Below are positions 13,520 through 31,469 of a stretch of 64,000 nt of DNA, in pieces. How positions within the stretch are numbered: position 1 is the stretch's first letter; the number at the start of each line of letters is the position of its first letter. A model generated the notes under the pieces. The model was not told the origin of the DNA, made no database searches, and worked only from the letters and a program-made list of their open reading frames with translations. Source of the stretch: Deltaproteobacteria bacterium RBG_13_43_22 (GTDB taxonomy: Bacteria > Desulfobacterota > RBG-13-43-22); the NCBI GenBank assembly GCA_001797675.1, contig MGQB01000001.1, forward strand, positions 137,968 through 201,967. The letters are read 5' to 3'. A program made the position numbers and the translations under genes.

Positions 13520-14131
13520 ATGAGCATTAATCCAAACAGGGAACTGGATGACATTCTCCGATTTTACGGAAAGAAGAATACTTTTTGGAATAGGATACAG
13601 TTTCGTTTTCTCTACCTTTTCCGCTTCATCCTGGCCAGACTGACGTTTTTCTGTCCGATTGTCGGTTTAAGAGTTCTCTTAACCCGCTGGCGTGGCGTTT
13701 GTATCGGTAAAGATGTTTACCTTGGTCATAACATTGATTTTGATTATGTGTTTCCATCTAAGATTACCATTGGAGATCATTCCGGTATAGGAAGTGGTTG
13801 TTCAATTTCCGCCCATCACAGTATCCCCATGAACACACCCCTGGCTCAACTATTTCCTCGAACGGTCAAGCCCGTCCATATCGGTCGCGGAGTAGACTGT
13901 AATCTGCATGTGATTATTCAACCAGGGGTAACCATCGGGAATTATACCGTCGTTGGCAATGGAGCGGTTGTCACCAGAGATATTCCGCCGATGACTTTTG
14001 CCGCCGGCAACCCGGCCAAACCTATTTCCGATTTAAGCGAAAAACTCCGTCCGTACATCCCGGCCGATGAATTTGAAGCCTTGCTGCAGGAACGTCGGGA
14101 GCGGTTTAACTGGCCCCCTCAAGGAAAATAA
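13520..14131 (+). CDS. Hexapeptide-repeat (left-handed beta-helix) O-/N-acetyltransferase, WcaF/WbbJ-like
   Basis: 203 aa. Hexapeptide repeats: IGDHSGIGSGCSISAHHS and IGRGVDCNLHVIIQPGVTIGNYTVVGNGAVVTRDIPPMTFAAGNPAKP. First gene of a tightly spaced operon. Confidence 0.75.
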   Translation: MSINPNRELDDILRFYGKKNTFWNRIQFRFLYLFRFILARLTFFCPIVGLRVLLTRWRGVCIGKDVYLGHNIDFDYVFPSKITIGDHSGIGSGCSISAHHSIPMNTPLAQLFPRTVKPVHIGRGVDCNLHVIIQPGVTIGNYTVVGNGAVVTRDIPPMTFAAGNPAKPISDLSEKLRPYIPADEFEALLQERRERFNWPPQGK

Positions 14132-14133
14132 TC

Positions 14134-15465
14134 ATGAAAAAACCTTATTCGGGCATCATTTGGAATCCGATTGAGCTTTTTTCTCATCAAGAATTGACTT
14201 CGGAGATGATTCCGGAGTTATTGGTTCATCAGTTGAACCGAGCAAAAATAGGTTCCCCTTTTTATAGAAAAAAATTGGTCGACTTAAAGATTCCGGACAA
14301 ACGAACTATTCTGGATTTATATGCGACTCTCCCCTTTACCGACAAATCGGAATTACTTGCCGATCAACAACAATTTCCCCCTTTCGGCAGCAACCTTCCC
14401 GTCCGGGAATCAAAGATACAAAGGATCAACAGGACCTCAGGCACAACCAGTGAACCCTTATTGTTAATTCTTACCTCAAAAGACGTCATGAACACCTATG
14501 AATGCGGCGCACGCTGTTTTTATGCCTCCGGTTTACGCCGCCATCATACGGTCATCCATTGCATGAACTATTGCATGTGGGCCGGAGGGTATACCGACCA
14601 TGGGAGCTTGGAGCATCTCGGCGCTGCGGTAATCCCCTTTGGTGTGGGAAATTCAAGATTGCTCATTGAAACCATCCTTCGGATTCGTCCCCAGGCCCTG
14701 CACGCCACACCGTCCTATCTGACCAAACTGCAGGAGGTGCTTAACCAGGATTTTGGCCTAGCACCGATCGAGTTGGGCCTGCAACTCGGCCTTTTTGGAG
14801 GAGAAGCCGGAATCCAGGATTCTAACTTTAGGCGGCAGATTGAAAAAATCTGGGGGTTTAAAGCCATGAATGCGAATTATGGAAGTGCGGAGGTTCTAAG
14901 CATGTTCGGCGCCGAATGTCATGAACGGGCCGGCCTTCACTTTATGGGCCAGGGGGTCCTCTATCCAACCTTGATCGACATGACCAGTGCAAAAGATATC
15001 CCTATTACCTCAGGGGCGGTGGGAGAATTGGTTTTGACTAATCTTGTCAAGCAGGCCCAGCCGCTTATTCGTTATCGAACCCATGATCTTATTGAAATCC
15101 TTTCTACAGACCGGTGTCTCTGCGGGCGGGGTAGTTTTCGATTTAAAGTAATTGGCCGCAACGATGATATGATAATTATTAAAGGTATTAATGTCTTTCC
15201 CACAGGCATTCAAAAAATAATCAATGAAAACCTTGACTATCTGAACGGCCAATATGTTATACTGATCAATAAAATCGACCCCATTGATCGGTTTGTGGTC
15301 CGTGCGGAGGTTCGTCCTGAAATGTCGGAGCCAAGGGACTTCAGGTCCAAGCTGCAATCGGCCTTTGTGGCCCATCTGGCCGTTCGCCCGGAAATCGAAC
15401 TGATTGCCGAAGGAACTTTGCCCAGGACGGAAAACAAGACCAAACGCCTACAAAGAATCCTTTAA
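14134..15465 (+). CDS. PaaK/CapK-family adenylate-forming ligase (phenylacetate-CoA ligase-like)
   Basis: 443 aa. Motifs: NRTSGTTSEPLL (P-loop-like AMP motif), NYGSAEV, IRYRTHDL and GRNDDMIIIKGINVFPTGIQ. Starts 2 nt after the upstream stop. Confidence 0.8.
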   Translation: MKKPYSGIIWNPIELFSHQELTSEMIPELLVHQLNRAKIGSPFYRKKLVDLKIPDKRTILDLYATLPFTDKSELLADQQQFPPFGSNLPVRESKIQRINRTSGTTSEPLLLILTSKDVMNTYECGARCFYASGLRRHHTVIHCMNYCMWAGGYTDHGSLEHLGAAVIPFGVGNSRLLIETILRIRPQALHATPSYLTKLQEVLNQDFGLAPIELGLQLGLFGGEAGIQDSNFRRQIEKIWGFKAMNANYGSAEVLSMFGAECHERAGLHFMGQGVLYPTLIDMTSAKDIPITSGAVGELVLTNLVKQAQPLIRYRTHDLIEILSTDRCLCGRGSFRFKVIGRNDDMIIIKGINVFPTGIQKIINENLDYLNGQYVILINKIDPIDRFVVRAEVRPEMSEPRDFRSKLQSAFVAHLAVRPEIELIAEGTLPRTENKTKRLQRIL

Positions 15466-15474
15466 GGAAATACC

Positions 15475-16371
15475 ATGGACGAAATACGAGAACAGGAAGT
15501 TTATGTTTCAGAGATAGCCCAATTTCTAAATTCCAGTTTCAAGGGGGAAGATTTTATCATCAAAAAACCGGCAACGATTGATGATCTGTCTGATCATGCT
15601 ATGATCTACCTTGAAGCCATGAATCCTGAGGTGCAGGCTAAAATCGATAAACATCAGGCGGTCCTGATTATTGCCGACAGCCTATTCCCTGTTAAAAACG
15701 GGGCTGTCCTTGCAACCGATCGTCCCAAGCTGTCTTTTGTCCGGGTTTTAAGGGAATTTTTTATTGAGCAAAACCTGCCCGTTATCCATAAAACCGCCAT
15801 AGTATCGCCGCAGGCCTCCATTGGAACTAACGTGACCATTGGTGAATATTGTCTCATCGGTTCACAGGCCGTCATTGACAACGGGAGTGAGATTTTGTCC
15901 GGCGTTGTAATCGCCGGCAAGGCTAAAATCGGGAAAAACTGCTTAATTAAAGACCGGGCGGTAATCGGAAGCGAGGGATACGGATTTGTATTTGACGAAA
16001 ATAACAAACCGATACATTTCCCGCAGTTCGGACAGATCATTATCGGTGATGCGGTTTGGATCGGATCCAATACCACCATTGAGCGGTCGGCTTTCAAGGA
16101 TACCATAATCGAGGATAATGTCAAAATCGATGACTTGGTCCACATTGGAAACGGATGCCGGATTGAGAAAAACACTATGATAACAGCCGGTACGATCATC
16201 AGTGAAAATGTTCATATTGGTTCCAACTGCTGGATCATGCCCAACGTATCCATAAGGAACAATATTGCGATAGGTTCTAATGTAACGGTGGGCATGGGCA
16301 GCGTAGTAGTGAATGATCTGCAATCCCCCGGGGTTTACATCGGGAATCCGGCACATTGGATAAAAAAATAA
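15475..16371 (+). CDS. LpxD-like left-handed beta-helix N-acyltransferase (atypical, short)
   Basis: 298 aa. LpxD-like core GSEGYGFVFDENNKPIHFPQFGQIIIGDAVWIGSNTTIERSAFKDTIIEDNVKIDDLVHIGNGCRI. Ends at ...PGVYIGNPAHWIKK without the C-terminal helical extension of E. coli LpxD. No lpxA, fabZ or lpxB neighbours. Confidence 0.65.
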   Translation: MDEIREQEVYVSEIAQFLNSSFKGEDFIIKKPATIDDLSDHAMIYLEAMNPEVQAKIDKHQAVLIIADSLFPVKNGAVLATDRPKLSFVRVLREFFIEQNLPVIHKTAIVSPQASIGTNVTIGEYCLIGSQAVIDNGSEILSGVVIAGKAKIGKNCLIKDRAVIGSEGYGFVFDENNKPIHFPQFGQIIIGDAVWIGSNTTIERSAFKDTIIEDNVKIDDLVHIGNGCRIEKNTMITAGTIISENVHIGSNCWIMPNVSIRNNIAIGSNVTVGMGSVVVNDLQSPGVYIGNPAHWIKK

Positions 16372-16394
16372 AGATCAATCAACAACGAGAGATT

Positions 16395-17504
16395 ATGAAT
16401 ACCCCCATCAAACCCATTCCTTTCAAAGAATTGGTATCCCCTTTCATCAAAAGAAAGTTGGATGAACTGCGAAGTCAATATGGGGAGAATTCTTCCCACT
16501 ATCTCGGTTTGGCCAGACAATATCTGCAAGTCCCTCTTGAAAACATTGTCTATCAAGATGAACGGGACAGGCATTATGATGCCCATACGGATTTTGTGGT
16601 TGACGATAAACCCATACCCGGTCTCGAACGCCTTTATCGTCGGGGGTTGGTCATTGAACCGACCATGATCTGCGCGGCCCACTGCCGGTATTGTCTGCGG
16701 GCCAATTATAAAACGCCTTACACGCTGTCCGAAGAAGAGCTCTTGGGAGTAGCCAAATTTTGTGGGTCCCAAGAACGAAAAGCCGTCCTTCATGAAGTTC
16801 TGATTACCGGGGGAGACCCCTTAATTATTCCCAATCGTCTGGCCTTTCTGGTTGACGCCCTGGTTGAATTCGCGCCCAACATCAAAATCATGCGAATTGC
16901 CACTCGGCTTCCCCAACAAGCCCCGAGCCGAATCACCAATACAGTCTATAGAATTTTTCAGAAACGGGAAGGCGTTCGATTTGAATTAGCCACACAGATC
17001 AATCATCCGGTGGAACTGTCTTTCCCGGAAACCGTTGATATTATTAAGACCTTCCGGAATATGGGCGTGGTGATCTACAGCCAAAATGTTTTATTGAAAG
17101 AGGTGAATGACGACCTTCCCGTGCTCATTGATCTTTACGATGCCATAAGAGATTTAGGTATTGAAGCCCATTATCTTTTTCATTGTATCCCCTTGCGGGG
17201 CATGAGTCATATGAGAACCTCCGTGGAAAAAGGACTCCGGTTGACCAATGCCTTAGTCAACAGCGGCCATATTTCAGGACGGGCCAAACCGATGTTTGCC
17301 GCCATGACCGATATCGGCAAAATTACCTTTTATGAAAATACAATCCTCCAAAAAGACCCGACCCACAACTCCCTTTTATTGCAAAGTCAATATTTAGATA
17401 AGGAAAGAAAGACCTGGAATCCTTCTTGGGTTTTGCCTTCCTCGGCGGAAGTGGATGAAAACGGGCGCTTGCGGATCTGGTACCTGGACGGCAGGGATGA
17501 TTAA
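16395..17504 (+). CDS. KamA-family radical SAM/PLP aminomutase (lysine 2,3-aminomutase-like)
   Basis: The ORF track opens at a TTG at 16356, overlapping the upstream gene. I prefer the ATG at 16395 (MNTPIKPIPF...). Motifs: CAAHCRYCLRANY (CxxxCxxC) and VLITGGDPL. Length and layout are typical of the KamA/EpmB/AblA family. Confidence 0.8.
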   Translation: MNTPIKPIPFKELVSPFIKRKLDELRSQYGENSSHYLGLARQYLQVPLENIVYQDERDRHYDAHTDFVVDDKPIPGLERLYRRGLVIEPTMICAAHCRYCLRANYKTPYTLSEEELLGVAKFCGSQERKAVLHEVLITGGDPLIIPNRLAFLVDALVEFAPNIKIMRIATRLPQQAPSRITNTVYRIFQKREGVRFELATQINHPVELSFPETVDIIKTFRNMGVVIYSQNVLLKEVNDDLPVLIDLYDAIRDLGIEAHYLFHCIPLRGMSHMRTSVEKGLRLTNALVNSGHISGRAKPMFAAMTDIGKITFYENTILQKDPTHNSLLLQSQYLDKERKTWNPSWVLPSSAEVDENGRLRIWYLDGRDD

Positions 17505-17513
17505 CATCTGATC

Positions 17514-18341
17514 ATGGATAAACATCCGGGGGGTCCCAAAATTTGTTTTCTAACCATGGACCTGGAAAATGACTGCGGAGGACGTATCGGACCGGTCTTT
17601 GATACTATTAACGAAAAAAATATTCGCAAGTTGATAAATTTTATCAATAATCAAAACGTTCCGTTAACCTTATTTATTACCGGCCGACTCTTTGAAGAAA
17701 AAAGGAGGGAACTCCAATTAATTCAGGAGGAAATAAAAACGATAGAGTTTGCCCTCCATTCCTACTCTCATCCCAATCTTTTGAATGATTATTCCGAGGA
17801 AATTGAAAAGGCCGTATCAGCCTACAAGGATTTTATGGGAGTGCCCCCTTTGGGCTACCGGGGACCACAAGGAAAAATTTCCAAGGTAGATTTTGAATGT
17901 CTTAAAAAACACCGCTTTCAATACGATTCCAGTATCATACCCACCATCCGGCCCGGGGTTTTTAACAACAGAAAAATGCCCAAAGGACCTTATTACCTGG
18001 ACGAGTACAACTTATGGGAAATTCCTTGTTCGGTTTTCCCCTTTACCGGCATTCCTATGGGTTTAGGACATCTCCGCCTGCTGGGACCAACAGTTACAAA
18101 ATTTCTTTTTTCATTTTTACCGCTGCTGCCGGTCATCGTATTCGTCTTTCATCTGCATGATATTATTCAAACAGAACATGCTGATAAACTGCAGGGTGCT
18201 TGGAATTTCTTTTATCGAAGGAATGTTGACCAGGGTTTCAGTCTCTTTGGCTTTGTGATCGAGGATCTTAGGAAAAAAGGTTATGGTTTTGATCTGATGA
18301 AAAATGCTCAAGCTAATCCAGTGCAGAACTTTCAACTTTAA
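17514..18341 (+). CDS. Polysaccharide deacetylase family protein (CE4/NodB-like)
   Basis: 275 aa. Motifs: FLTMDLENDCGG and ALHSYSHPNL (H-x-x-x-H type metal motif). Last gene of the operon. Its 3' end overlaps the convergent gene by 29 nt. Confidence 0.6.
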   Translation: MDKHPGGPKICFLTMDLENDCGGRIGPVFDTINEKNIRKLINFINNQNVPLTLFITGRLFEEKRRELQLIQEEIKTIEFALHSYSHPNLLNDYSEEIEKAVSAYKDFMGVPPLGYRGPQGKISKVDFECLKKHRFQYDSSIIPTIRPGVFNNRKMPKGPYYLDEYNLWEIPCSVFPFTGIPMGLGHLRLLGPTVTKFLFSFLPLLPVIVFVFHLHDIIQTEHADKLQGAWNFFYRRNVDQGFSLFGFVIEDLRKKGYGFDLMKNAQANPVQNFQL

Positions 18342-19323
18342 TTTTCTTCAGATTCAATCCCTCACTCCACAAATAGATCAATCCTAACAGAATTGCGGGA
18401 AAAATATCAATAAACCAAAGAATAATGGCATAACTTTGGGCATATTGGGAAGGAATTCCAAGAGCCATAAGACCTAAAGCACAGGCCAGATGAAAAGTGC
18501 CAACATAGGCCGGTGCCGAAGGAAGAGCGACACCAAGAGCCAGAACGGCTTGAATAAAAACCGCGGCCATCAATGGGAGCTGAAGATTGAAGGCTGAGAA
18601 TAGAATATAAGTCACCAGGACATAGATACTCCATATCACCAAAGAGCTCAACATTACGATCCCGATTTCCTTATAATTGTTCAAAATCGAAAGTCCTTCA
18701 GAAAAAGAGGTTATCATTTTTATAATCTTTTCAATAACCGAAGAGGGCAAAGGCGAGAGGATTTTTTTAAGGATATTATTAATGGATACGGTTTTAATTT
18801 TTAGTATTATTAGAAAAAAAAGCAGACTACTACAAAAAAACATAAAAAGATAACCGCCCACCCTGATCCCTTTCAAGCTGAGACCCTCATGGCCCATCTT
18901 GACATAGGGGAAAAAGAGTAGGGTCAGAGAAAAAAGAAGAATAACTATAAATCCGTCAAAGAGGCGTTCGACGATAATGGTGGCAAATGAAGAGGATTTG
19001 CTGATCTTTTCTTTTTTGCCGATGATATAGGCACGGACCAATTCCCCAAAGCGTGCCGGTAAAATGATATTGGCCATAAATCCAATAAAAGCGGCGGGAA
19101 GCAAACTTAATAAGGGAATTTTTTTAATCGGAGAAAGCAAATATTTCCAACGGAAAGACCGAAAAAAAAGAGCCAGCACATTGGCAAAAAACAAGGGAAT
19201 GACATACCAATAGTCGGCCTCCGCCAGGGCCTGGAATAGTTCCTGAGGGTGAATATTTCGGAGGAACAGAAAGACAAAAACGGCACTGACGGCCAACCCG
19301 AGTAAATAGTGAAATTTTCTCAT
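18313..19323 (-). CDS. UPF0104 / lysyl-PG-synthase-TM-region-like flippase-like membrane protein
   Basis: 336 aa with about 8 helices. The N-terminus MRKFHYLLGLAVSAVFVFLFLRNIHPQELFQALAEADYWYVIPLFFANVLALFFRSFRWKYLL is typical of this family, which is often found beside GT2 genes. Confidence 0.65.
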   Translation of the reverse strand: MRKFHYLLGLAVSAVFVFLFLRNIHPQELFQALAEADYWYVIPLFFANVLALFFRSFRWKYLLSPIKKIPLLSLLPAAFIGFMANIILPARFGELVRAYIIGKKEKISKSSSFATIIVERLFDGFIVILLFSLTLLFFPYVKMGHEGLSLKGIRVGGYLFMFFCSSLLFFLIILKIKTVSINNILKKILSPLPSSVIEKIIKMITSFSEGLSILNNYKEIGIVMLSSLVIWSIYVLVTYILFSAFNLQLPLMAAVFIQAVLALGVALPSAPAYVGTFHLACALGLMALGIPSQYAQSYAIILWFIDIFPAILLGLIYLWSEGLNLKKIKVESSALD

Positions 19324-19334
19324 GGAATAATATG

Positions 19335-19465
19335 GATGAATTCGTAAAAAGTTAGAAAATTCCTCTTGGAGTTTTTCCGGAGAAGACCGGAATCCAGTCC
19401 CGTTGGCGGGATGGTTCCTGGCTTTCGCCGGGGTAACGGCCTTAACGACTTTTTACGAGTCCATC
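19335..19465. mobile_element. MITE-like palindromic element, copy 1 (TCGTAAAAAG-type inverted termini)
   Basis: The left end GATGAATTCGTAAAAAGT (19335-19352) matches the reverse complement of the right end GACTTTTTACGAGTCCATC (19447-19465) at 16 of 18 positions. The element has no ORF and sits in a 176-bp gap between two minus-strand genes. Confidence 0.55.
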
Positions 19466-19499
19466 GATCTTGACAAGTTTAAAAGAAGTAACCCAGCCG

Positions 19500-20927
19500 T
19501 CAAATTTTAAACATTTTCAAACCTGCTTTTGCCTTTCGTTTAAATTCATTCCAGGATCCGGTCTTTAAAATCTGCTGAAAGATATAGGTCGGCCTGAAAT
19601 AAAATTTTTTGTAGGCCAACCGGAGCATTTCAAACAATTCGTCTCGATTTAGATTTTCTTCCCAAAGAGGAGGCAAAAAATCGGCACTGGGGTTTTCGGC
19701 AAATTCCTTCCAATAATCTCGTTTGATAATTCCTCGTTCTAATCCTAATTTGTATAACTCCGTAGCCGGGAAAGGGGAGGTCAGAGAAATGTGAACAAAA
19801 TCCGGCCTGATCTTCCTGCTAAATCCGATCGTTTCCAAAATCTGCTCCCTGGTTTCAAAAGGATTACCCAACATGAAATAGGCCAAGGTTGTCAGGCCGG
19901 CTTTCCTGGCGGCTTGAAAAGCAGTTTCTACCTGATTCAGAGTAATGCCTTTTTTTAAAACCTTTAATATCTCATTGTTTCCAGATTCCACCCCGAAATG
20001 GATGCGGTCGCAGCCGGCGGATTTCATTTTTTCCATCATCTCCAGATCGATCAGATTAACCCGGGCCCGGACATCCCAGAAAATTTTTAATTTTCTGGAT
20101 ACGATTTCCGCACAGATATCCAATACCCTTTGACGATTGACGGTGAAGGTGTCATCATATAAAATAAACTCTGCGATCCCCATTTGAATGCATTCTTCCA
20201 TCTCATCAACCACATTTTTGGCGGAACGAAACCTAAAACTCTTGCCCAGGTGCGGCCGGTCGCAAAAGATACATTTGTAGGGACACCCTCGGCTGGTCAT
20301 GATGGTCGTAACCGGATTACTCCGGGCCAGAACGGACCAATATTTTTCGACGGGAACCAAGCTCCTAGCTGGATGAGGCAACTCATCTAAATTATCGATC
20401 AAAGGTCTGGAGCCCGTATTAACGAGCTTTCCATCTTTCTTGAAAACCAATCCTTTGATAAGGGAAAGATCGTCATTCCGATTCAAGCCATTTAATAATT
20501 CGGTAAAAGGGACCTCCCCCTCTCCTAAAATAAGAAAGTCGATCTCAACCTGCTCGATACTCTCTTCCGGGTATATGTTGACATGAGGGCCGCCTAAAAC
20601 AATGATCGTCTTCGGATCAGCCTTTTTAACAATTCTGGCGACCATCATCACGTCGATCAAGGTGAACGTCATGGTCTGAATGCCGACCACATCCGGATTT
20701 CTTCTAACGATCTCTTTTTCTATGTCCGCATAAGTCAATTCCTCCACCTGAGTGTCTAAAACTTCAATCTCAAAATCGGTATGACTCAGAGCATAAGAGG
20801 CCACATATAATAATCCCAAGGGGGGGTTGTAACCGGCTTTTTCCTCCCCTTCCAGTTCATCGGGGAAATTGGTTTTAATCATATGGAAATCCGGAGGATT
20901 GATAAGAAGTACTTTCATGTCCGACAC
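19500..20927 (-). CDS. B12-binding domain radical SAM protein (class B)
   Basis: 475 aa. N-terminal cobalamin-binding-type Rossmann region (KVLLINPP..., IVLGGPHV). Radical SAM motif MTSRGCPYKCIFCD. Confidence 0.8.
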   Translation of the reverse strand: MSDMKVLLINPPDFHMIKTNFPDELEGEEKAGYNPPLGLLYVASYALSHTDFEIEVLDTQVEELTYADIEKEIVRRNPDVVGIQTMTFTLIDVMMVARIVKKADPKTIIVLGGPHVNIYPEESIEQVEIDFLILGEGEVPFTELLNGLNRNDDLSLIKGLVFKKDGKLVNTGSRPLIDNLDELPHPARSLVPVEKYWSVLARSNPVTTIMTSRGCPYKCIFCDRPHLGKSFRFRSAKNVVDEMEECIQMGIAEFILYDDTFTVNRQRVLDICAEIVSRKLKIFWDVRARVNLIDLEMMEKMKSAGCDRIHFGVESGNNEILKVLKKGITLNQVETAFQAARKAGLTTLAYFMLGNPFETREQILETIGFSRKIRPDFVHISLTSPFPATELYKLGLERGIIKRDYWKEFAENPSADFLPPLWEENLNRDELFEMLRLAYKKFYFRPTYIFQQILKTGSWNEFKRKAKAGLKMFKI

Positions 20928-20942
20928 TTTCTTGGACCTTTT

Positions 20943-21797
20943 TTATTTTAGGAGTTCTCTTCTTAATTTGGCGATTTGATCAGAAACGAGTCCAAAAAAG
21001 AAAATGAGTATGCCGATTAAAAAAATAATTAATGCGGATACCGATCCTCTGTTCAATAAAAAATAGGTAAACAAATAAAATAAAATTCCTATGGAAGCAA
21101 GAACAAAACTGACGGGGATGAATATCCGTAAGGGATTAAACAACGTTATGATTCTGAGAACCGACAACAAAGATTCAAACCCGGTTTTAACGGTCACCGA
21201 GCTCTTACCGATCCTTTTCCTTATTTTGATGTCCATAAATTTTACGTTATAATTATCACTTAAAAAAGCGAGAAGACTGGTCATGGAAAAGGAGAAACGG
21301 TCCGGACAGATCGACAAATATTTTAAAATAATCTCCTTTTTATATACCCGGAACCCCGAATTAATATCTGGAATCTTTTGTCGGGTCAAGTAATTGGCCA
21401 GAAAACCCAAAAGCCATTTTCCGGGCATTCTCCACAGACTGCTGTGAATGATCTGATTACGTGAACCGACAACCAGATCATAATTATCCATATACTGTAG
21501 GAGAGGTTCTATTTCAGACGGATCATGCTGGCCGTCCCCGTCCATAATCAATACCTGATCGGCCTTGGCTTCTTTAATGCCGCACTTTAAGGACGCCCCA
21601 TATCCTTTGTTAACCGGATTCCGGATTAATCTAACGCTAAACTGCAAAATGATCGCTGCCGAATTATCCAAAGAACCATCATCCACGACAATAATTTCCC
21701 AATCTTTCCCCTGGACGACAGAAATCAATTCGTTTAAGACCTCCCCAATAACCGCTTCTTCATTAAAAACCGGGATGACAATGCTTAACTTAGGCAT
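20943..21797 (-). CDS. GT2 polyprenyl-phosphate sugar synthase (ArnC/GtrB/DPM1-like) with two C-terminal TM helices
   Basis: 284 aa. Motifs: LSIVIPVFNEE, VVDDGSLDNS and IMDGDGQHDP. C-terminal helices IFIPVSFVLASIGILFYLF and ALIIFLIGILIFFFGLV. Confidence 0.8.
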   Translation of the reverse strand: MPKLSIVIPVFNEEAVIGEVLNELISVVQGKDWEIIVVDDGSLDNSAAIILQFSVRLIRNPVNKGYGASLKCGIKEAKADQVLIMDGDGQHDPSEIEPLLQYMDNYDLVVGSRNQIIHSSLWRMPGKWLLGFLANYLTRQKIPDINSGFRVYKKEIILKYLSICPDRFSFSMTSLLAFLSDNYNVKFMDIKIRKRIGKSSVTVKTGFESLLSVLRIITLFNPLRIFIPVSFVLASIGILFYLFTYFLLNRGSVSALIIFLIGILIFFFGLVSDQIAKLRRELLK

Positions 21798-22026: not shown

Positions 22027-25000
22027 CTAATCAATCGTAATAGTCGTCAACAAAAATTTGTCCTTGAAGGAATAGGGGCTCGGATAAGAAATTTTCAACC
22101 GCCTTTCGGAATACCTGGAATCCCAGAGACCAAGGTATATTTTATAGGTACCGGCGGTAATGTCGGCCGGAATTTTTATTTGAAAATCTTTCTTAATGAT
22201 TTCTCCGGGAATAAGGGAATCTAAGGTTTTTTCACCTTCCTGAATTAAAAGATGCCCTTGAAAGAGCATTTGGTCGTTTTTTAAAACGTGGAGGAAAACA
22301 TCATAATCCAGATCCATTTTTTCAAGCCCCTTCCAAAAAAGGGACCCTTTGAGGATGTCGCCCCCTTTGCCCTTTGTTTGTTCGAGAGAATATCCCATCA
22401 ATTGAATTTTGCCGGAAAAAACGGCTCGACTGGCCGTTTGGGGGAAAGGAAGATTGTCGATTCTCTTCTTAACAACTTCTGCGGCAACCGGTTCATTTAT
22501 TTTTTGATAACGGTCATATAAGGTTTTCAGTTTGGATGGGTTGTTTTGATTTAACGCTTCATATTTTTTTAAAAAAACCATGCCGTCCCGGTGATGCCCG
22601 GTTTGTATTAATAGGTTTCCCAAATTCCAACCAACATCATTATAGTCCGGGCTAAGGTTGAATAATTTTTGAAATAAATCTATTGCCGATTTATAATCGG
22701 CATGCGCCTGATAAGTGCTGGCCATGGCGGAAAGAATTTGCTTCATATTTTCTTCCATTGCTTTTTTGAGGTCCAAATAAATATCAACTTGTTTTATGAT
22801 GAATTGGACTTCCTTATGGAAAGAAAAAACCCGGAATTCAAACTGGCCCACTCTGGGATCATTGGTAATATTAAAAGAGATATTTTGAAGGCCTCCGTTG
22901 GACTTTTGAATTTCATTATTGTCAATCACTTTCTCCGCTATTTGAAAAAAGCCTTGGGGAGTATGTTTTAAAATATCAACCCGTAATGCGGGACCAACTC
23001 CGGCAGCCGATGATACCGCCGATAAACGAAAATGAACATTAAAAAAGCCTTGAGGAAAAACGTCTCTGCTCCATAACTTAAAATAAAGGAGTCCATCATC
23101 TCCTCTATTATATTCGCCGATAAAACCTTCTTTTGAAATCCTGTTTACCTTTTCCGAATAAGTGCATTGATCCGGTAAAACATAATGATGAGTTGATTTT
23201 ATTTGAATCAACGGCAGATAAAACCCAGTGAAATCGCAGAAAAGTTTGAGCCAGGCCTCACCGGTTAAGGTACTTTTTGCCAAAGCAAAATAATTGGACA
23301 AAAAGAAAGGATCCTTTTCTTCAACAGACTTGAAATAATTCAAAGCGTCGACCTTCTTGCCGTCCGCAAAACAGGCGGATCCTAAAAGGGCAAGACTTTC
23401 CAGGTTTTCAGGGTCCTGTTGTCGGGAGGTCTCAAAAAATTGAACGGCCTTTTTAGGCTGTTTGAATCGCAGCCGGTTCAAGCCCATTTCCACTGGATCG
23501 GCCACCCATTTGACATATAGATTTCCTTTGCTTTGAGAGAAAGCCTTAAGTTGGTAAATATTTTTAATGAAGGGGAAAGCCGGGGAGGGTTCCATTTCAA
23601 GAATTTCAATTTGGCCCGATTCCATTTGCCTTTCCTTTTTGGCGGACCCGCATTTGATTTTAACTTTAGCCTGATTTTCACTATATACTATTAATTGGAT
23701 TTGTTTAAGTTTTTTAGTTGTTCTTAAAACTCTTACCGCTTCAGAATACGGTTTTACCACAAAAATACTGCTGCTTTTTTCATATTCAGGATGATTTAAA
23801 AAAACTACTTTATATGAACTATCAGCATCTTCAATAAGCGCAGGAAATGATATTTTATGTTTTATAGGACCTGCCTTTGTAGAATATACTCTTAGGGCCG
23901 GATCAAGAAAGTCGGGAAACTTGAGGCTGCCGTTTTTTTCAATTCCCGTCTCTTGGTGTTTTAAATCAAATTCCTTGATCAAGGTAAAGTAACGTTGCAG
24001 CGATAATAAATTTTCCCCTTCCGGTTTGATAGGCCTATGGGTCCAGAGACTGAAATATCTATCTCCCTCCAGGGAACTAATTACCAGGAAATCGCAGTTA
24101 TTTTTATAATATTCAATCGGCTTCAGATACTCAAAATCGATTTTTGAAAATTTGATACTATATGGGGTATACCCATCCAGTGCAACTACACTTTCAGAAG
24201 GTAGATTTTGGTTTAACCATTTTTCTGCTAAATCTCTGTTGTCATCCAGCCAATAATAATAATCGATCTCAATAGTCTTCCAGGTGGGCCATACCAACAA
24301 ACCGAGAAATAGAATCGTCATCACTGTTTTTTTAAAACGCCAGGAATACCAGTAGTGGAGGAATTTATAAAAAAAGGCGGCGGCCATCAAAGCCAAAAAG
24401 GGGATCATAACCACAACATCTCTTTCCCCAAACCGCCTTCCCCACAAGCCCACCAGAAAAAAATAACCGATTGGGAAAGAACAAATCATCAGAACTTCTT
24501 TGTTTTTTCGCAACAAGTGATATGTGATCCCGATTATGGTAATTAAAATCAGTATGCCACCAAAACCATCCATCAGCGTTTGAATAGCCCAGGCAAATCG
24601 TGACCCTTGAGGGCCCTCGATCCAAGAACCTGTCCAGGGAAGGGATTGTTTAGCCATTTCCAAGGTTTTACCAAAGATCCTGTCTACCGTACTGGGGAAA
24701 TTAACAAAAAGACCGGGGGCCCCAATGACAAATCCTGCAAGTGAGGTCGTTATAAATAATAGTATTCGTTTTAATAAAGATATCCGAACTTTCTTAAACG
24801 ATTCATCAAAGAATAGGTAACAGAAAGAAATGAAGAAAGGAATGCAAGTCAATATCCCATTAGGCTTAGTGGTAAAGGTTAAACCGAAAAAAAGCCCTCC
24901 GAGAGCAAAAAATAAGGAACGTTTATGGGTGAGGATGAAATAAGAGAACATGAAACTTAATGTAGCCATAAACGCCAGAGGAGAATCCATTTCCAGATAA

Positions 25001-25464
25001 TGGGCTTGGGCCACCGATAGAGGGGTTACAGCAAACAAGGCTGCGGCCATTAACCCGATATGTCTGTTCTGAAATATTCTTTTCCCTAAAAAATAAAGTA
25101 ACCATATATTTAATGTACTAAAAATAACCGAAGTAATTCTCCCGATGAGGACCATATCAGGATCAACTTCAGTTTGAATCTTGTAAAAACTGAAGATAAT
25201 GCCGAACAAGAAAGCAATTTTATTAATAACAACATATACGATAGCAATGCAATAATTATATACAAAATACCAAGTTTCCAGACCCACCTGTGAAAAATCA
25301 CCTTGGATCATTTGATAGATTATTGTGCAATCTCCCTGTTCATCAGGATGAAGGGCAGTGGTGGAATTCAGACCCCACATTATCCCCCATAAACGGAAAA
25401 CTAAACCTATTACTATTATTAAGAAAAGCAGGTAGGTGTACGATTTTGAGACTTGATTTTTCAT
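22027..25464 (-). CDS. ArnT/PMT (GT39)-like GT-C membrane glycosyltransferase with C-terminal TPR repeats and beta-rich module
   Basis: 1145 aa. First-loop motif ALHPDEQGD after an N-terminal helix. About 12 helices. TPR-like segments AVQFFETSRQQDPENLESLALLGSACFADGKKVDALNYFKSVEEKDP and YQAHADYKSAIDLFQKLFNLSPDYNDVGWNLGNLLIQTG. Confidence 0.7.
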   Translation of the reverse strand: MKNQVSKSYTYLLFLIIVIGLVFRLWGIMWGLNSTTALHPDEQGDCTIIYQMIQGDFSQVGLETWYFVYNYCIAIVYVVINKIAFLFGIIFSFYKIQTEVDPDMVLIGRITSVIFSTLNIWLLYFLGKRIFQNRHIGLMAAALFAVTPLSVAQAHYLEMDSPLAFMATLSFMFSYFILTHKRSLFFALGGLFFGLTFTTKPNGILTCIPFFISFCYLFFDESFKKVRISLLKRILLFITTSLAGFVIGAPGLFVNFPSTVDRIFGKTLEMAKQSLPWTGSWIEGPQGSRFAWAIQTLMDGFGGILILITIIGITYHLLRKNKEVLMICSFPIGYFFLVGLWGRRFGERDVVVMIPFLALMAAAFFYKFLHYWYSWRFKKTVMTILFLGLLVWPTWKTIEIDYYYWLDDNRDLAEKWLNQNLPSESVVALDGYTPYSIKFSKIDFEYLKPIEYYKNNCDFLVISSLEGDRYFSLWTHRPIKPEGENLLSLQRYFTLIKEFDLKHQETGIEKNGSLKFPDFLDPALRVYSTKAGPIKHKISFPALIEDADSSYKVVFLNHPEYEKSSSIFVVKPYSEAVRVLRTTKKLKQIQLIVYSENQAKVKIKCGSAKKERQMESGQIEILEMEPSPAFPFIKNIYQLKAFSQSKGNLYVKWVADPVEMGLNRLRFKQPKKAVQFFETSRQQDPENLESLALLGSACFADGKKVDALNYFKSVEEKDPFFLSNYFALAKSTLTGEAWLKLFCDFTGFYLPLIQIKSTHHYVLPDQCTYSEKVNRISKEGFIGEYNRGDDGLLYFKLWSRDVFPQGFFNVHFRLSAVSSAAGVGPALRVDILKHTPQGFFQIAEKVIDNNEIQKSNGGLQNISFNITNDPRVGQFEFRVFSFHKEVQFIIKQVDIYLDLKKAMEENMKQILSAMASTYQAHADYKSAIDLFQKLFNLSPDYNDVGWNLGNLLIQTGHHRDGMVFLKKYEALNQNNPSKLKTLYDRYQKINEPVAAEVVKKRIDNLPFPQTASRAVFSGKIQLMGYSLEQTKGKGGDILKGSLFWKGLEKMDLDYDVFLHVLKNDQMLFQGHLLIQEGEKTLDSLIPGEIIKKDFQIKIPADITAGTYKIYLGLWDSRYSERRLKISYPSPYSFKDKFLLTTITID

Positions 25465-28878: not shown

Positions 28879-30777
28879 ATGATCATCCCAGTTAACTCAA
28901 GAAAATTTTATTTGATTCTCGTTCTATCCGTCAACCTGTGTCTGTTGATCCCGCCCCTTCGATTCGCGGCTTCTTTACTGCTCATTTGTTTTTTGCCCGG
29001 TTATTTTCTTGTAACCAAGTTGACCCTCTGGAAGAATCCCCTGTTCGCCGCCATAGGCTCCATAGGATTGAGTTTCTTGCTATCTCCTTTGATCACCTTG
29101 CCGGGGAGCATTCTTTTTCACAGGGCAACGCCCTATGTTATCACCTTGTCCATCGATTTGTTTCTATTGGTTTTACTATACTCCCTGAGGGACAGAGAAC
29201 CGATCAGGTTCCCGGAGAAGAATCATAGCCTTTTCCTTGGCCCCCTTTTTCTCCTTATTTGTAGTCTGGTTTTTATTTATTCGGACATCACCAAGTTTGG
29301 TCCCTACTCGGAGGATTGGGCCTACCTTTTCGGGATTATCAAGGAACTTTCCAGAAACATGCCCCCCAGTAATCCGGAGGCCTCCTTCCTGCTGTTGAAA
29401 CAATCATGGGGGTTCTGGTTCCTTTTTGCCCTGGTTCATAGCCTTGGAGGGGTTTCGGTCTGGAAAGTTTTGGAGTTTATGCCGGTCCTTTTAAGTTTTG
29501 TTTATTTGGGACTAGTTTATATGATTCTTTTTCAGGCCACCAAAAACAGTTCGATGGGATTATGGGCTATAGCGTTATTAGCCCTTGGAAAACAATCCGA
29601 TTGGGTCCTGAGAGGATTTCAAGGTCTGGGATGGCATCCGGGTTATTTTTTTAATCTTCATTGGGAGGAAGCCCAGGCCCTGACCGGCTACTCCTTACTT
29701 TGGGGTTGGTATATCCTGCCGAGCATCATACCCCCTCTCACGTCCCTCTTTTTTTTAATTCGCTATCAGCAGGAACGGAGGAAAAAAGATCTTTGGTTCT
29801 CTCTTGGCGCCTGTTCGATCAGTCCTTTTTTTCATCCTGTTTTTTATTTTAGTTTTTTAGCCGGTTTTTCCCTTATGGTGCTTTTCCAGTGGATGAGAAA
29901 AAAATATGGCTCCTGGCTGTTATTATATGCCCTAACCTTTTTGCCTTACTTTTTGACTTTTTATTTATACGTTAAACCGGGAACTCCCGACATTCCCATT
30001 TATCAATGGTATACCGACTCAGCCAGCATTCTGATAGCTATAAGGGAATATGTTAAGGTCAACGGGGTCGTTCTTCCTTTTGCCTTGCTGGCCTTTTGTT
30101 TTTCCCCCGAAGCCCGGACCTGATTTTTGCCCTTTTCCTTCCTCTTTGCCTTTCTAAACCTTTTCGGACAAGGAGTCGTTAATCATACGGCTCATTTTTT
30201 GTATCAAAACAGCCTCTATATAACTTTACCGAGCGCTATTGGATTGGGAATGTTGAAAAAAATACCCCGATGGTCCCGAATACTGTTTATTCTGCTGGTT
30301 TTCTCGATCATTATTCCCCCCTTTTATTTTCAAGTCCTGCATCGCCTGGAGACTGGCTGGGAAGGGGCTGTTGATGTCGAACAAAATGCAGCCGGCGAAT
30401 ATATTCGCTCCTATACTGATGGAAACAGCACCTTTGTCATTCTCCCCGACTCAAGATATTCTCTGGTTTGTGTTGAAGGGATCGGAGAACGAAAAGTCAT
30501 TTCGGGTCATTTCAATCATCTAAACAAGTATGAAACCATGAATTTTATCCGAAACCTTAATGAGGAAATTAAACATTTTTATTCATCTTCAGATCTCCAG
30601 GAAAAACATATTTTTCTTCAAAAATATCAAGCCTATTACATTTTCCTGGGTCCGGAAGAAATTACTTTTATGAAAGAACAGAAAACAGACATTGAAAGGC
30701 TTAAAAAAGTTGATCAACTTGTTTATCGAAGCAAAAATGTAGAGATATTAAAAGTCAAATTGGGTGATCAATCATGA
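28879..30777 (+). pseudogene. Polytopic membrane protein (about 630 aa) interrupted by a single in-frame TGA at 30121-30123
   Basis: ORFs 28879-30123 and 30127-30777 share one frame and are separated only by TGA plus one codon. The downstream piece starts at a TTG with no RBS and begins inside hydrophobic helices (PFSFLFAFLNLF, ILFILLVFSIIIPPFYF). It therefore reads as the continuation of one protein. Confidence 0.55.
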
Positions 30778-31469
30778 ACATTCAGCTGCTCGGGAAAAAG
30801 AAAACACCGATTATCCTGGGCATAACCATCCCCTTTATCTTCTGGTCGCTTTCTGAAATACTCCCCTGGATGGCTTCCGGGATAAATCGTATAGGCTATC
30901 GATATACCCAAAATAGTTCCAATAATTTCTCGGGCAGGTTAACCATAATCGGCAAGAATTCTACAGAACGAAAATATATAAATGATCTGAAATTTCCTTT
31001 ATCGGGAAAATCTGACCCCCGCATAGTATACGATCATTTTCAACTGCAGTTGACGGGTCTGATTGAGGTTGAGAATCCTGATATTTACTGGATCGGAACC
31101 GAATCGGACGACGGGTCCTGGATTTGGATTGATGGAAAAAAGATTCTGGATAATAGGGGCCTTCATTCGCGCCAGGAAAAAATTGATTTTGTTTATTTAC
31201 AAGAAAGGAGCCATTTCATTGAATTGAAATTTTAAAATCTTATGGGAGAAGCATACTTTGATGTATTTTGGGTCCTTCCAGACGGCACCCATAAACCTCT
31301 GTCATTTTTCTCTTTCCCCTATAGCAGGACCGTTCATTATCTCTTGGGGGCAGCCAATATTTTTTTTAAAATCACCCAATATTGGTTTTTTTTCTTTATC
31401 CCTTTTCTGTTATATAAGCTATTGTTCCCTAACAAATCCAATATTGAAAATAATAGTAAGACTCGCTAA
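30774..31469 (+). pseudogene. Membrane-anchored PA14-domain protein interrupted by an in-frame TAA at 31233-31235
   Basis: ORFs 30774-31235 and 31242-31469 share one frame. The PA14-like sequence spans the stop: TESDDGSWIWIDGKKILDNRGLHSRQEKIDFVYLQERSHFIELKF-stop-NLMGEAYFDVFWVLPDGTHKPL. The start overlaps the upstream stop (ATGA). Confidence 0.6.

Follow-up and report, generated by a model that had tools for sequence, protein, structure and literature searches.

Two putative glycan-tailoring modules, one built around a conserved GT2–B12 radical SAM gene pair, in a low-GC island of Deltaproteobacteria bacterium RBG_13_43_22

Judged by architecture, the closest known gene set to the locus described here is hpnJ-hpnI-hpnL/hpnK, for hopanoid cyclitol ether synthesis. 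Its enzymes act in the order HpnI, HpnK, HpnJ, that is, glycosyltransferase, deacetylase and radical SAM enzyme (PMC13459092), and HpnL is a UPF0104-family protein (bioRxiv 10.1101/2025.07.29.667474). On a Burkholderia replicon, hpnJ-hpnI-UPF0104 converges on hpnK-hpnI, which reproduces both the four-part set and the convergent deacetylase of our window, the whole 64,000-nucleotide stretch of DNA analysed here. The components nevertheless differ: the window glycosyltransferase (GT2) is unrelated to HpnI, the deacetylase is of the CE4 and not the HpnK type, and the UPF0104 protein shows hardly any similarity to its HpnL-like counterpart in Burkholderia. The likeness to the Arn system, which modifies lipid A with Ara4N, lies in enzyme classes, as GT2, CE4 and GT-C proteins occur in both. 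The “Arn-like logic” proposed by a first-pass annotation holds for the GT2 class, a cytoplasmic CE4 and a conserved gene pair, but no component is an Arn orthologue. A literature search found no paper on the GT2–radical SAM cassette, a gene set common to many lineages and unstudied so far.

Gene content and layout of the island

The island has a GC content of 0.38–0.47, compared with 0.49–0.55 in the housekeeping part of the window, and carries two convergent gene groups. The plus-strand order is hexapeptide acyltransferase, PaaK-like, LpxD-like, KamA-like and CE4 (module A), and the minus-strand order is GT-C/TPR, GT2, B12 radical SAM (rSAM) and UPF0104 (module B):

4991–7429: PMT_2-type GT-C
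10413–13298: YfhO GT-C
13520–14131, plus: hexapeptide-repeat acetyl/acyltransferase (Hexapep; WcaF/maltose O-acetyltransferase-like, below cut-off), first gene of the operon
14134–15465, plus: PaaK/F390-synthetase-like adenylate-forming enzyme (PaaK models 214–217 bits, below cut-off; AMP-binding_C_2)
15475–16371, plus: LpxD-like N-acyltransferase, left-handed beta-helix (PRK00892, 200 bits, cut-off 207)
16356–17504, plus: KamA-family rSAM, amino acid 2,3-aminomutase-like (TIGR03822 137 bits, TIGR00238 131 bits, both below cut-off)
17514–18341, plus: CE4 de-N-acetylase, CE4+DUF3473-like subfamily, 275 aa (PF01522, 45 bits, cut-off 23), last gene of the operon
18313–19323, minus: UPF0104/LPG_synthase_TM membrane protein (MprF flippase-domain family), 336 aa (PF03706, E 5e-58, 197 bits, cut-off 33)
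19324–19499, minus: structured spacer, 176 nt, between the rSAM and UPF0104 genes
19500–20927, minus: class B (cobalamin-domain) rSAM, probable start ATG 20918 (PF02310 and PF04055), second gene of the conserved pair
20943–21797, minus: GT2, ArnC/DPMS/GtrB-like, 284 aa (PF00535, E 7.7e-36), first gene of the pair
22027–25464, minus: GT-C (PMT/PMT_2, ArnT-like N-terminal region) with C-terminal TPR (PMT_2 E 1.7e-13, PMT 1.3e-9, TPR_19)
25994–28783: candidate GT-C by a weak, sub-threshold DUF2206 match
35553–38267: PMT_2-type GT-C

The CE4, UPF0104, rSAM and GT2 genes singled out by the first-pass annotation are found in the ORF list of the window exactly where it placed them. ORF coordinates likewise bear out its 29-nt convergent overlap between the 3′ ends of the CE4 and UPF0104 genes (18313–18341) and its short GT2-to-rSAM gap, which is 15 nt with the longest rSAM ORF (GTG start at 20927) and 24 nt with the ATG at 20918, the start used by gene callers and family consensus (472 aa). 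The entire tail-to-tail arrangement is kept in L007, a relative at 85% identity, and linkage of modules A and B was seen in this one lineage only (the window and L007). We read the locus as two conserved glycan-tailoring modules joined tail to tail in an envelope-glycosylation island of a sulfate-reducer-type bacterium (Thermodesulfobacteriota, Desulfobacca-like), and give this reading as a whole a probability of roughly 0.5.

The GT2–rSAM pair and its partners

Homology places GT2 in the ArnC/DPMS/GtrB polyprenyl-phosphate class, as originally suggested. Its best PDB matches, all full-length, are ArnC (9bhc/8vxh), the archaeal Dol-P-Man synthase DPMS (5mlz) and GtrB (5ekp), not processive synthases, and hydrophobic segments 216–234 and 243–261 correspond to a C-terminal two-helix membrane anchor. 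GT2 has full-length hits on the AglJ, PgfS, ArnC and PpgS models, each below cut-off, and shares 29% identity with E. coli ArnC.

The rSAM has homologues in many phyla at 51–63% identity. Its closest curated families are HpnJ (252 bits over the full length, cut-off 578) and BchE (210 bits), and it is 30% identical to Burkholderia HpnJ over 428 aa. The best fold matches of its AlphaFold model (pLDDT 89) are AprD4 (TM 0.75/0.77), TsrM, MgmA, OxsB, CysS and TokK. Nearest relatives HpnJ and AprD4 work on amino sugars or lipid-linked sugars, which we count in favour of a sugar-modifying role. An amino-sugar substrate and methylation of the lipid-linked sugar are inferred; C-methylation has a slight edge over an HpnJ-like rearrangement, a guess weakened by the fact that HpnJ and BchE are not methyltransferases.

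The 80 species genomes that we surveyed span Patescibacteria, anammox bacteria, Nitrospirota, DPANN and other groups. In 44 of the 72 genomes whose upstream sequence is long enough, an orthologous GT2 (38–47% identity) lies immediately 5′ of the rSAM gene and in the same orientation; if distances of up to 2.7 kb upstream are allowed, such a same-strand GT2 is present in 50 of 59 usable loci. The grouping is not due to chance. Gene-caller views display the pair in Patescibacteria, Brocadia, Chloroflexota, a Lokiarchaeia MAG and one further MAG. Recurrent partners, counted in the 42 loci with 5 kb or more of sequence on either side, are SAM methyltransferases (24), GT-C/YfhO proteins (18), UPF0104 (14) and CE4 (6, or 14%), next to GT2 itself (38).

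The first-pass annotation had asked whether rSAM, GT2 and UPF0104 form a conserved trio. The pair does form a conserved cassette in which UPF0104 recurs, but since UPF0104 accompanies it in only about one third of genomes, the core is the pair and not the strict trio. A family member is found within 6 kb of the rSAM gene in 23 of the 80 species loci, immediately downstream in 13. The window protein, with at least seven hydrophobic segments, also matches TIGR00374 “flippase-like domain” (104 bits, cut-off 43) and is proposed, from family annotation only, as a candidate flippase for the lipid-linked sugar. Several GT-C genes are indeed present nearby; the ArnT-model hit of the GT-C/TPR protein is weak and far under cut-off. 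The GT-C/TPR gene, immediately upstream of GT2 on the same strand, is a candidate for the transferase that uses the lipid-linked sugar. A GT-C directly adjoins the pair in Chloroflexota, Iainarchaeum, Altiarchaeota, anammox and other loci, and this flanking position in many phyla speaks for a product that can still serve as glycosyl donor.

The CE4 deacetylase and module A

The CE4 motifs T14-M-D16-x-E18, H82-x3-H86, R116-G-P and H213 line up with those of the subfamily. The protein lacks an N-terminal hydrophobic segment, and with the conserved motif-1 Asp already at residue 16 a signal peptide would not fit; with no export signal and intact catalytic motifs, the predicted location is cytoplasmic, as action on a cytoplasmic lipid intermediate demands. 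Within the GT2–rSAM cassette, CE4 genes occur in 11 of 80 species loci, too few for an amino sugar to be proven for the whole family.

Unremarked by the first-pass annotation, the CE4 gene is part of the module A operon, which adjoins module B and is independently conserved. Around the KamA-like gene, 45 related metagenome loci (40–67% identity, best segment) mostly contain PaaK-like and LpxD-like neighbours, with one or two LpxD-like copies before KamA in 23 of them. CE4 genes recur beside this module, and about 12 of 16 PaaK-carrying loci, by our count, have a de-N-acetylase (PIG-L or CE4). The probable outcome of module A is an amino sugar that bears a beta-amino acyl group in place of acetyl. 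The hexapeptide acyltransferase of the module has one N-terminal hydrophobic segment (30–48). Residues 8–290 of the LpxD-like protein align to positions 3–308 of 345 in the PRK00892 model, so that the N-terminal LpxD region, in LpxD a uridine-binding domain, is kept. Together with the occurrence of module A in nonulosonic-acid and O-antigen clusters (NeuB, Wzy, formyltransferase), this suggests that module A acts on nucleotide sugars and may function separately from module B. As last gene of a de-N-acetylate/re-acylate operon, CE4 may likewise act on a nucleotide sugar and not on a lipid.

Taken further, these observations would mean that two unrelated operons merely abut, CE4 serving solely module A and a nucleotide-activated amino sugar of another island glycan, while GT2, rSAM and UPF0104 handle a different sugar with no lipid deprotection. 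CE4 lies 9 nt behind the KamA-like gene in the same direction and converges on UPF0104, module A occurs without GT2–rSAM in the 45 loci, and KamA-like and PaaK-like genes are absent from all 80 GT2–rSAM species loci, as are convincing LpxD-like ones, with a weak hexapeptide-repeat hit in L014 as the sole LpxD/hexapeptide match. Yet the nearest relatives of the window CE4 beyond its own lineage are those of GT2–rSAM cassettes (E 1e-11 to 1e-13), with module A CE4s ranking behind (1e-8 to 1e-9). Elsewhere, module A keeps company with polyprenyl-phosphate-type GT2s and GT-Cs, in the orders DUF2304-GT2 (PpgS-like), CE4, GNAT, PaaK, LpxD, KamA, PMT_2 (L110) and two GT-Cs, PpgS-like GT2, GNAT-like ORF, PaaK, LpxD, KamA (L111), and in L116 with a GT2 (AglJ-like by NCBIfam) and UPF0104. 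L007 also preserves the joint arrangement. We consider mere abutment rather unlikely.

Proposed pathway and remaining alternatives

In the preferred two-module reading, GT2 would work at the cytoplasmic face and charge polyprenyl phosphate with a sugar, probably an N-acyl hexosamine. The rSAM would then alter the lipid-linked sugar by radical chemistry, with C-methylation that keeps the anomeric phosphate slightly favoured, UPF0104 would flip the product, and the adjacent GT-C would move the sugar to a periplasmic or surface acceptor. In module A, CE4 would de-N-acetylate an amino sugar, and the LpxD-like enzyme would place on the freed amine a beta-amino acyl group made by the KamA-like aminomutase and activated by the PaaK-like ligase; the substrate might be a UDP-sugar before loading or the lipid-linked sugar.

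Somewhat less probable than abutting operons is HpnIJKL-like remodelling, in which GT2 would place GlcNAc on a membrane lipid, CE4 would deacetylate it, the HpnJ-like rSAM would turn the glucosamine ring, by contraction, into a carbocyclic aminocyclitol head group and UPF0104 would move the finished lipid instead of a glycosyl donor. Besides the Burkholderia architecture, the order of Hpn action and the family of HpnL, the top rank of HpnJ among curated families points this way, as does a CE4 gene directly before rSAM in about eight Patescibacteria-type loci. However, the HpnJ score is far under its cut-off, the other three components differ as described above, and most loci are without CE4. 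Hopanoid-pathway families were not found among Pfam/NCBIfam matches of the larger window ORFs that were scanned. GT-Cs border the pair in 43% of the well-flanked loci, and a carbocyclic phosphate ester is no normal GT-C donor. Many host lineages, Patescibacteria and DPANN among them, are not known as hopanoid producers.

It is improbable that the rSAM leaves the sugar untouched and targets a cofactor, the polyprenyl carrier or some protein or peptide, its adjacency to GT2 reflecting some other shared pathway. Class B rSAM function is not readable from sequence, relatives at 25–35% identity sit in RiPP-like contexts (e.g., Clostridium estertheticum), and a few loci have additional rSAM genes after the pair, some of them HpnH-like. 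Against this, the recurrent partners are all glycan or lipid-carrier enzymes, no precursor-peptide/RiPP families appear among the modelled partner families or in Pfam scans of unclassified genes directly downstream of rSAM, and on a Solidesulfovibrio plasmid the gene of a more distant relative is again preceded by one for an ArnC-like GT2, which it overlaps by 4 nt. A genuine Arn locus, for which the presence of GT2, CE4 and GT-C classes speaks, is refuted at the level of membership and deserves next to no credence, with GT2 at 75 bits on the ArnC model (cut-off 529), the GT-C/TPR protein at 31 bits on ArnT (cut-off 567), CE4 not similar to ArnD (E 0.08), and no ArnA, ArnB or ArnE/F homologues in Pfam/NCBIfam scans of the larger window ORFs, those above ArnE/F size.

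The 176-nt spacer at the rSAM–UPF0104 junction has no Rfam match at gathering score, and its tested 43-nt core occurs once in the window. Its fold energy is −54.6 kcal/mol (z = −2.97; 0 of 200 shuffles as stable), and it represents an insertion relative to L007, where the junction measures 4 nt.

The locus and its glycosyltransferase island

ORF analysis recovered the four genes that the first-pass annotation had combined into an Arn-pathway-like set at the positions it had assigned, and the convergent CE4 and UPF0104 genes indeed have 29 nt in common. The gap of 15 nt described between the GT2 and radical SAM genes holds for the longest ORF and becomes 24 nt from the ATG at 20918, the start chosen by gene callers and by the family consensus.

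Features of the locus and the surrounding island
17514-18341, plus strand: CE4 deacetylase (PF01522, 45 bits against a cut-off of 23)
18313-19323, minus strand: UPF0104 membrane protein (PF03706, E 5e-58, 197 bits over residues 7-314; TIGR00374 "flippase-like domain", 104 bits)
19500-20927, minus strand: B12 radical SAM enzyme (PF02310, 83.6 bits; PF04055, 102 bits)
20943-21797, minus strand: GT2 glycosyltransferase (PF00535, E 8e-36, 124 bits against a cut-off of 23)
22027-25464, same strand as the GT2 operon and preceding it: GT-C protein of 1145 aa with fused TPR repeats
4991-7429: GT-C-type protein fused to an F5/8-type-C domain
25994-28783: weaker GT-C candidate (DUF2206-like) fused to an F5/8-type-C domain
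35553-38267: GT-C-type protein fused to an F5/8-type-C domain
30774-31235: small PA14 protein, in the island
34084-35532: GH99/WbsX-like protein, in the island

These genes lie in an island of ~38 kb (1791-38267) that is dense in GT-C-type membrane proteins of 800-1150 aa (PMT_2, YfhO) and has a GC content of 0.38-0.47, compared with 0.49-0.55 where the window carries housekeeping genes. At least three further large PMT_2- or YfhO-type GT-Cs are encoded in these ~38 kb, where several GT-C-type proteins carry F5/8-type-C domains, and weaker GT-C candidates are found at 1791-4919 (YfhO-like) and 25994-28783 (DUF2206-like). The several ArnT-like GT-Cs noted nearby are real as PMT_2/YfhO-type transferases but not as ArnT orthologues: the ArnT model reaches 31 bits (cut-off 567), and BLASTP against E. 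coli ArnT is not significant. Methyltransferases of the kind that accompanies the GT2-radical SAM pair elsewhere are encoded by 31490-32662 and by an ORF extending beyond the window start; the large island ORFs 7787-10366, 28879-30123 and 32813-33958 gave no Pfam match.

The glutamine synthetase at 61888-63216 shares 92% identity with that of a Desulfobacca sp. MAG and 91% with that of a Thermodesulfobacteriota MAG, for which reason the host is most likely a diderm, Desulfobacca-like member of the Thermodesulfobacteriota. Between 13 and 26.2 kb, neither promoter-like sites (40, against 29.0 ± 6.2 in shuffles) nor terminator-like sites (21, against 16.7 ± 4.9) were clearly in excess, the tRNA scan yielded no tRNA genes and the Rfam scan no match reaching the gathering score. 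An unusual fusion of a lipoate-protein ligase catalytic domain to DUF116 is encoded at 51422-52978 (plus strand), adjoining a small radical SAM gene (50390-51292).

The GT2-radical SAM pair: class, recurrence, and proposed chemistry

A search of PDB sequences returned ArnC (residues 2-268, E 1e-18), the Pyrococcus DPMS 5mlz (3-254), and GtrB 5ekp (3-280) as the closest solved structures over the full length of the GT2, matches to other GT2s being limited to its first ~110 residues. Its top NCBIfam models, AglJ, PgfS, ArnC, and PpgS, all describe polyprenyl-phosphate enzymes and all score far below cut-off. BLASTP identity to E. coli ArnC amounts to 29% over 176 aa, and with 74.8 bits against a cut-off of 529 in the ArnC model (NF007986) the protein does not qualify as an ArnC orthologue. 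The motifs VVDDGSLD and MDGDGQHDP align with IDDGSSD and LDADLQNPP of ArnC and provide the acidic metal/nucleotide motifs of GT-A enzymes, and hydrophobic segments 216-234 and 243-261 form a C-terminal transmembrane hairpin. Based on the PDB ranking, the model scores, the identity to ArnC, and the two C-terminal helices, we place the GT2 in a putative new subfamily among polyprenyl-phosphate sugar synthases (DPMS/GtrB/ArnC class). The same ranking and the hairpin rule out a processive synthase, the alternative against which the polyprenyl-phosphate assignment had originally been set.

The radical SAM enzyme displays class B architecture, with an N-terminal B12-binding domain preceding the radical SAM core and invariant cysteines C212, C216, and C219 (numbering of P0001, a member of the family alignment). 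Its predicted structure (pLDDT 89) matches AprD4 best in both directions (TM 0.75/0.77), followed by TsrM, MgmA, OxsB, CysS, and TokK, so that the model confirms the class B fold and does not discriminate the reaction. AprD4, a diol dehydratase solved with paromamine, is also the top PDB match by sequence, at ~20% identity; it acts on the glucosamine ring of paromamine. As AprD4 carries the domain yet is not known to use cobalamin, cobalamin use by the window enzyme is not to be assumed. The closest curated families are HpnJ (TIGR03471), whose equivalog level is missed with 252 bits, under half of the cut-off of 577.6, and then BchE (210 bits). Identity to Burkholderia HpnJ is 30% over 428 aa, and named HpnJ and BchE sequences in a plasmid collection share 28-30%. 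Beyond the CxxxCxxC motif, the family alignment contains three further cysteines, C243, C269, and C303 (P0001), two invariant and one nearly so, all absent from the aligned HpnJ; they are candidates for ligands of an auxiliary cluster, for an H-atom donor, or for a structural role.

Relatives of this enzyme number thousands. Outside its own lineage, the nearest among 120 listed share 56-65% identity and derive from Patescibacteria, Chloroflexota, Brocadia, a Lokiarchaeia MAG, and others, and a GT2 of ~285 aa lies immediately upstream in six of six gene-caller views of distant homologues. When each GTDB species was represented by a single genome (185,579 genomes), the scan matched up to 490, from which the best 80 of 490 loci (51-59% identity) were analyzed, with partners detected by tblastn and iterated HMMs over all ORFs. 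Bacterial hosts of these 80 loci are Patescibacteria/Saccharibacteria, anammox and other Planctomycetota, Nitrospirota, Omnitrophota, Anaerolineae, and KSB1, and archaeal hosts are DPANN archaea, Altiarchaeota, and Methanosarcinales; nearly all of the 80 belong to uncultured lineages, among them Patescibacteria, DPANN archaea, and anammox bacteria. A GT2 orthologue (38-47% identity) is located directly upstream on the same strand in 44 of the 72 loci with enough upstream sequence, and the same orthologous GT2 lies at most 2.7 kb upstream in 50 of 59.

Partners near the radical SAM gene in the 42 loci with at least 5 kb on each side
GT2: 38 of 42
Class I SAM methyltransferase: 24 of 42
GT-C or YfhO: 18 of 42
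UPF0104: 14 of 42
PA14 proteins (anammox): 8 of 42
CE4: 6 of 42

Across all 80 loci, UPF0104 occurs in 23 and CE4 in 11, a frequent one-strand order being GT2-(methyltransferase)-CE4-radical SAM-UPF0104 (e.g., L065, L073, and L081). Since the other partners are found in only part of the loci, the core of the cassette is the GT2 together with the radical SAM enzyme, and UPF0104, CE4, and GT-C are recurrent, optional members. The idea of a conserved trio of these two with UPF0104 consequently survives for the pair (50 of 59 within 2.7 kb) and not for UPF0104 (23 of 80). No relevant paper on such a cassette was found in the open-access literature.

Of the genes immediately following the radical SAM gene, 29 were unclassified; scanning them yielded scattered extra radical SAM genes and nothing else. 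In two Iainarchaeum (DPANN) loci (L012:5641-6589 and L037:2537-3526), the next gene codes for a radical SAM protein containing Fer4_12 and DUF3463, an architecture we take to be that of the hopanoid adenosyl-transferase HpnH; a second B12 radical SAM gene directly follows in four further loci. Eight Brocadia loci (L005, L011, L013, L025, L027, L033, L045, and L046) continue from GT2-radical SAM(-methyltransferase) into PA14-domain proteins of 700-900 aa, which may be what is glycosylated or may act as a lectin-like partner.

Characterized class B enzymes are mostly methyltransferases, and GenK and GenD1 methylate aminoglycoside sugars, MoeK5 a lipid-phosphoglycerate-linked sugar. In a B12 radical SAM network, these three are listed as Csp3-methyltransferases and HpnJ and BchE under "other or unknown transformations", outside the methyltransferases, and AprD4, despite its B12-binding domain, was placed among "unrelated enzymes" (PMC12931638). 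The frequent flanking GT-Cs argue that the product of the radical SAM enzyme would still be a glycosyl phosphate donor, which would favor methylation or another change sparing the anomeric center over ring contraction. Unlikely in our estimation is a rearrangement like that of HpnJ or calditol synthase, or another non-methylating step, on a polyprenyl-phosphate (amino) sugar, giving a novel carbocyclic or rearranged unit that would be displayed on the envelope and here additionally bear an N-linked beta-amino acid. If true, Patescibacteria, DPANN archaea, and anammox bacteria would be among the organisms bearing such a unit on their envelopes.

The UPF0104 protein is polytopic (at least seven hydrophobic segments) and belongs to the MprF-type flippase-domain family, from which a flippase role is predicted. 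It matched no PDB sequence at E up to 0.1, and no hit to the HpnL model TIGR03476 was reported; the likeness to a Burkholderia HpnL-like protein is weak (26% over 89 aa), with Pfam family PF03706 in common. A 176-nt spacer (19324-19499, minus strand) between the radical SAM and UPF0104 genes has an unusually stable fold (z = -2.97). L007, an 85%-identical relative keeping the whole arrangement, lacks this insertion and has a junction of 4 nt. The spacer is present in same-species contigs, its tested 43-nt core is single-copy in the window, and it has no Rfam match at gathering score.

The CE4 deacetylase and its plus-strand partners

The CE4 protein aligns at D16, E18, H82, H86, R116, and H213 with at least 15 members of a CE4 subfamily resembling proteins with DUF3473, in keeping with NodB homology. 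Its first catalytic motif starts at T14, and neither a signal peptide nor an N-terminal hydrophobic segment is present, which rules out an exported enzyme; export had been named as the feature that would speak against action on a cytoplasmic lipid intermediate. The protein is not ArnD-like (E 0.08 against E. coli ArnD by BLASTP), and its PDB matches at E up to 0.01 include no ArnD-named chain. What the first-pass annotation had overlooked is that CE4 is the final gene of a plus-strand operon, hereafter module A, in which it follows a hexapeptide acyltransferase, a PaaK/F390-synthetase-like adenylating enzyme, an LpxD-like acyltransferase, and a KamA-family radical SAM protein. The LpxD-like protein scores 200 bits against a cut-off of 207 with the LpxD N-terminal region included, a region that in LpxD is a uridine-binding domain. 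The KamA-like protein is a divergent relative of the amino acid 2,3-aminomutases that stays below the family cut-offs (TIGR00238, 131 bits against 199; TIGR03822, 137 against 396) and contains CxxxCxxC (CAAHCRYC).

Scanning metagenomes with the KamA-like protein returned 45 loci (L093-L137), in which PaaK-like, one or two LpxD-like, and KamA-like genes recur in varied glycan clusters with Wzy/GT1, NeuB, or a sugar formyltransferase. By manual count of the locus listing, a de-N-acetylase, either PIG-L or CE4, accompanies about 12 of 16 loci carrying PaaK, and this non-orthologous replacement points to selection for function rather than fold. Gene order in L110 is DUF2304-GT2 (PpgS-like), CE4, GNAT, PaaK, LpxD, KamA, and PMT_2 GT-C, and in L111 two GT-Cs, PpgS-like GT2, a GNAT-like ORF, PaaK, LpxD, and KamA. 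We found no description of this module. Its probable role is to attach N-(beta-aminoacyl) groups to amino sugars: the N-acetyl group would be removed, a beta-amino acid put in its place, and the product would then enter a polyprenyl-phosphate/GT-C route. The LpxD-like N-terminal region suggests that a UDP-sugar may be the substrate. Alternatively, by analogy with ArnD and NaxD, module A may act on a lipid-linked sugar (PMC10927774). As none of the 80 GT2-radical SAM loci carries the KamA/PaaK genes, the joining of module A to the minus-strand genes (module B: GT-C/TPR, GT2, radical SAM, and UPF0104) is specific to the lineage of the window and L007.

Relation to known lipid-linked sugar systems

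The nearest architectural precedent is the hopanoid-tailoring set HpnIJKL rather than Arn. In both the window and HpnIJKL, a GT2 and a de-N-acetylase occur together with a UPF0104 membrane protein and a B12-domain radical SAM enzyme. Burkholderia sp. PAMC 26561 encodes hpnJ, hpnI, and UPF0104, then convergent hpnK and a second hpnI, and the window deacetylase is likewise convergent. HpnI adds GlcNAc to bacteriohopanetetrol, HpnK then deacetylates, and a contraction of the glucosamine ring, giving the cyclitol ether, is the step proposed for HpnJ (PMC13459092), the substrate thus being a lipid-linked amino sugar; HpnL is a UPF0104 family member (bioRxiv 10.1101/2025.07.29.667474). The window GT2, however, is of another subfamily without similarity to HpnI (E 2.3), the deacetylase is CE4 in place of HpnK, the radical SAM enzyme is distant from HpnJ (30% identity, below half the cut-off), and GT-Cs and SAM methyltransferases are frequent partners of the window-type cassette, unlike in HpnIJKL. 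No hopanoid-pathway family, including squalene-hopene cyclase and other hpn genes, was detected among the larger window ORFs scanned, nor was one called in the six context tables of homologues. A GT2 unrelated to HpnI and the lack of these families in the scanned window ORFs rule out a hopanoid locus; the system resembles HpnIJKL in layout and is not a member.

With Arn, the window shares the logic: once a GT2 has loaded an N-acylated amino sugar onto undecaprenyl phosphate, its N-acyl group is taken off by a CE4-family enzyme, and flipping and GT-C transfer follow, ArnC being the best solved relative of the window GT2. In contrast to Arn, the flippase candidate is UPF0104 rather than the small ArnE/F pair, and the radical SAM enzyme and the beta-aminoacylation module are additions. 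Among the larger window ORFs scanned with Pfam and NCBIfam, a range above ArnE/F-sized ORFs, no formyltransferase, aminotransferase, or SMR-type pair corresponding to ArnA, ArnB, or ArnE/F was identified. ArnC and ArnT models far below cut-off, together with BLASTP showing no orthology to E. coli ArnC, ArnD, or ArnT, rule out a true Arn locus. The hedged proposal of Arn-like logic is largely borne out by comparative genomics, Arn orthology is not.

NaxD-type modification of lipid A with galactosamine or glucosamine operates in Francisella and Bordetella (Lgm), and the Acinetobacter pathway is also of this type; NaxD is, to our knowledge, YdjC-like and not a CE4-family enzyme. In this pathway, an ArnC-like GT2 makes undecaprenyl-P-HexNAc, which is deacetylated on the carrier before a GT-C adds the sugar to lipid A (PMC10927774). 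The NaxD-type pathway differs from the window in lacking UPF0104, re-acylation, and a radical SAM step. Three-component systems (GtrB-GtrA-GtrV, CsbB-GtcA-YfhO, and mycobacterial PpgS-Rv3632-Rv3779) follow the same chain of polyprenyl-phosphate sugar synthase, flippase, and GT-C, a likeness extended by YfhO and several PMT_2 GT-Cs in the island and by PpgS-like GT2s next to module A elsewhere. No GtrA-family flippase was present among the scanned window ORFs, a set above the size of small ORFs, and the window differs in that its lipid-linked sugar appears to be tailored by radical SAM enzyme, methyltransferase, and deacetylase before transfer. AprD4, GenK/GenD1, and MoeK5 exemplify the radical SAM tailoring of amino sugars proposed here, but they belong to antibiotic pathways whose substrates are soluble or other lipids, a polyprenyl-phosphate GT2 accompanies none of them, and identity is ~20%.

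We read the system as tailoring of a lipid-carrier-linked sugar followed by GT-C transfer, with the radical step as its interesting part. Polyprenyl-phosphate sugars are usually seen as simple shuttles, Arn and NaxD being the known exceptions of editing on the carrier. The pair points to a radical reaction on the lipid-linked sugar, which would add a new kind of tailoring to envelope glycan synthesis and gives an uncharacterized class B radical SAM family a concrete substrate candidate. Its presence in hundreds of species of both domains opens a way into the surface chemistry, so far almost unknown, of Patescibacteria, DPANN archaea, and anammox bacteria. The N-(beta-aminoacyl) amino sugars predicted for module A would constitute an unusual, cationic type of decoration, with a potential effect on surface charge comparable to that of Ara4N.

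A distant relative of the radical SAM enzyme (27% identity) is encoded by a cultured host on plasmid pDMC1 of Solidesulfovibrio magneticus RS-1 (L138, 4973-7506). An ArnC-like GT2 gene precedes it with a 4-nt overlap, and NUDIX, kinase, TPP-enzyme, and sugar-nucleotide genes follow; this locus may serve as a cultured model for GT2-radical SAM coupling.
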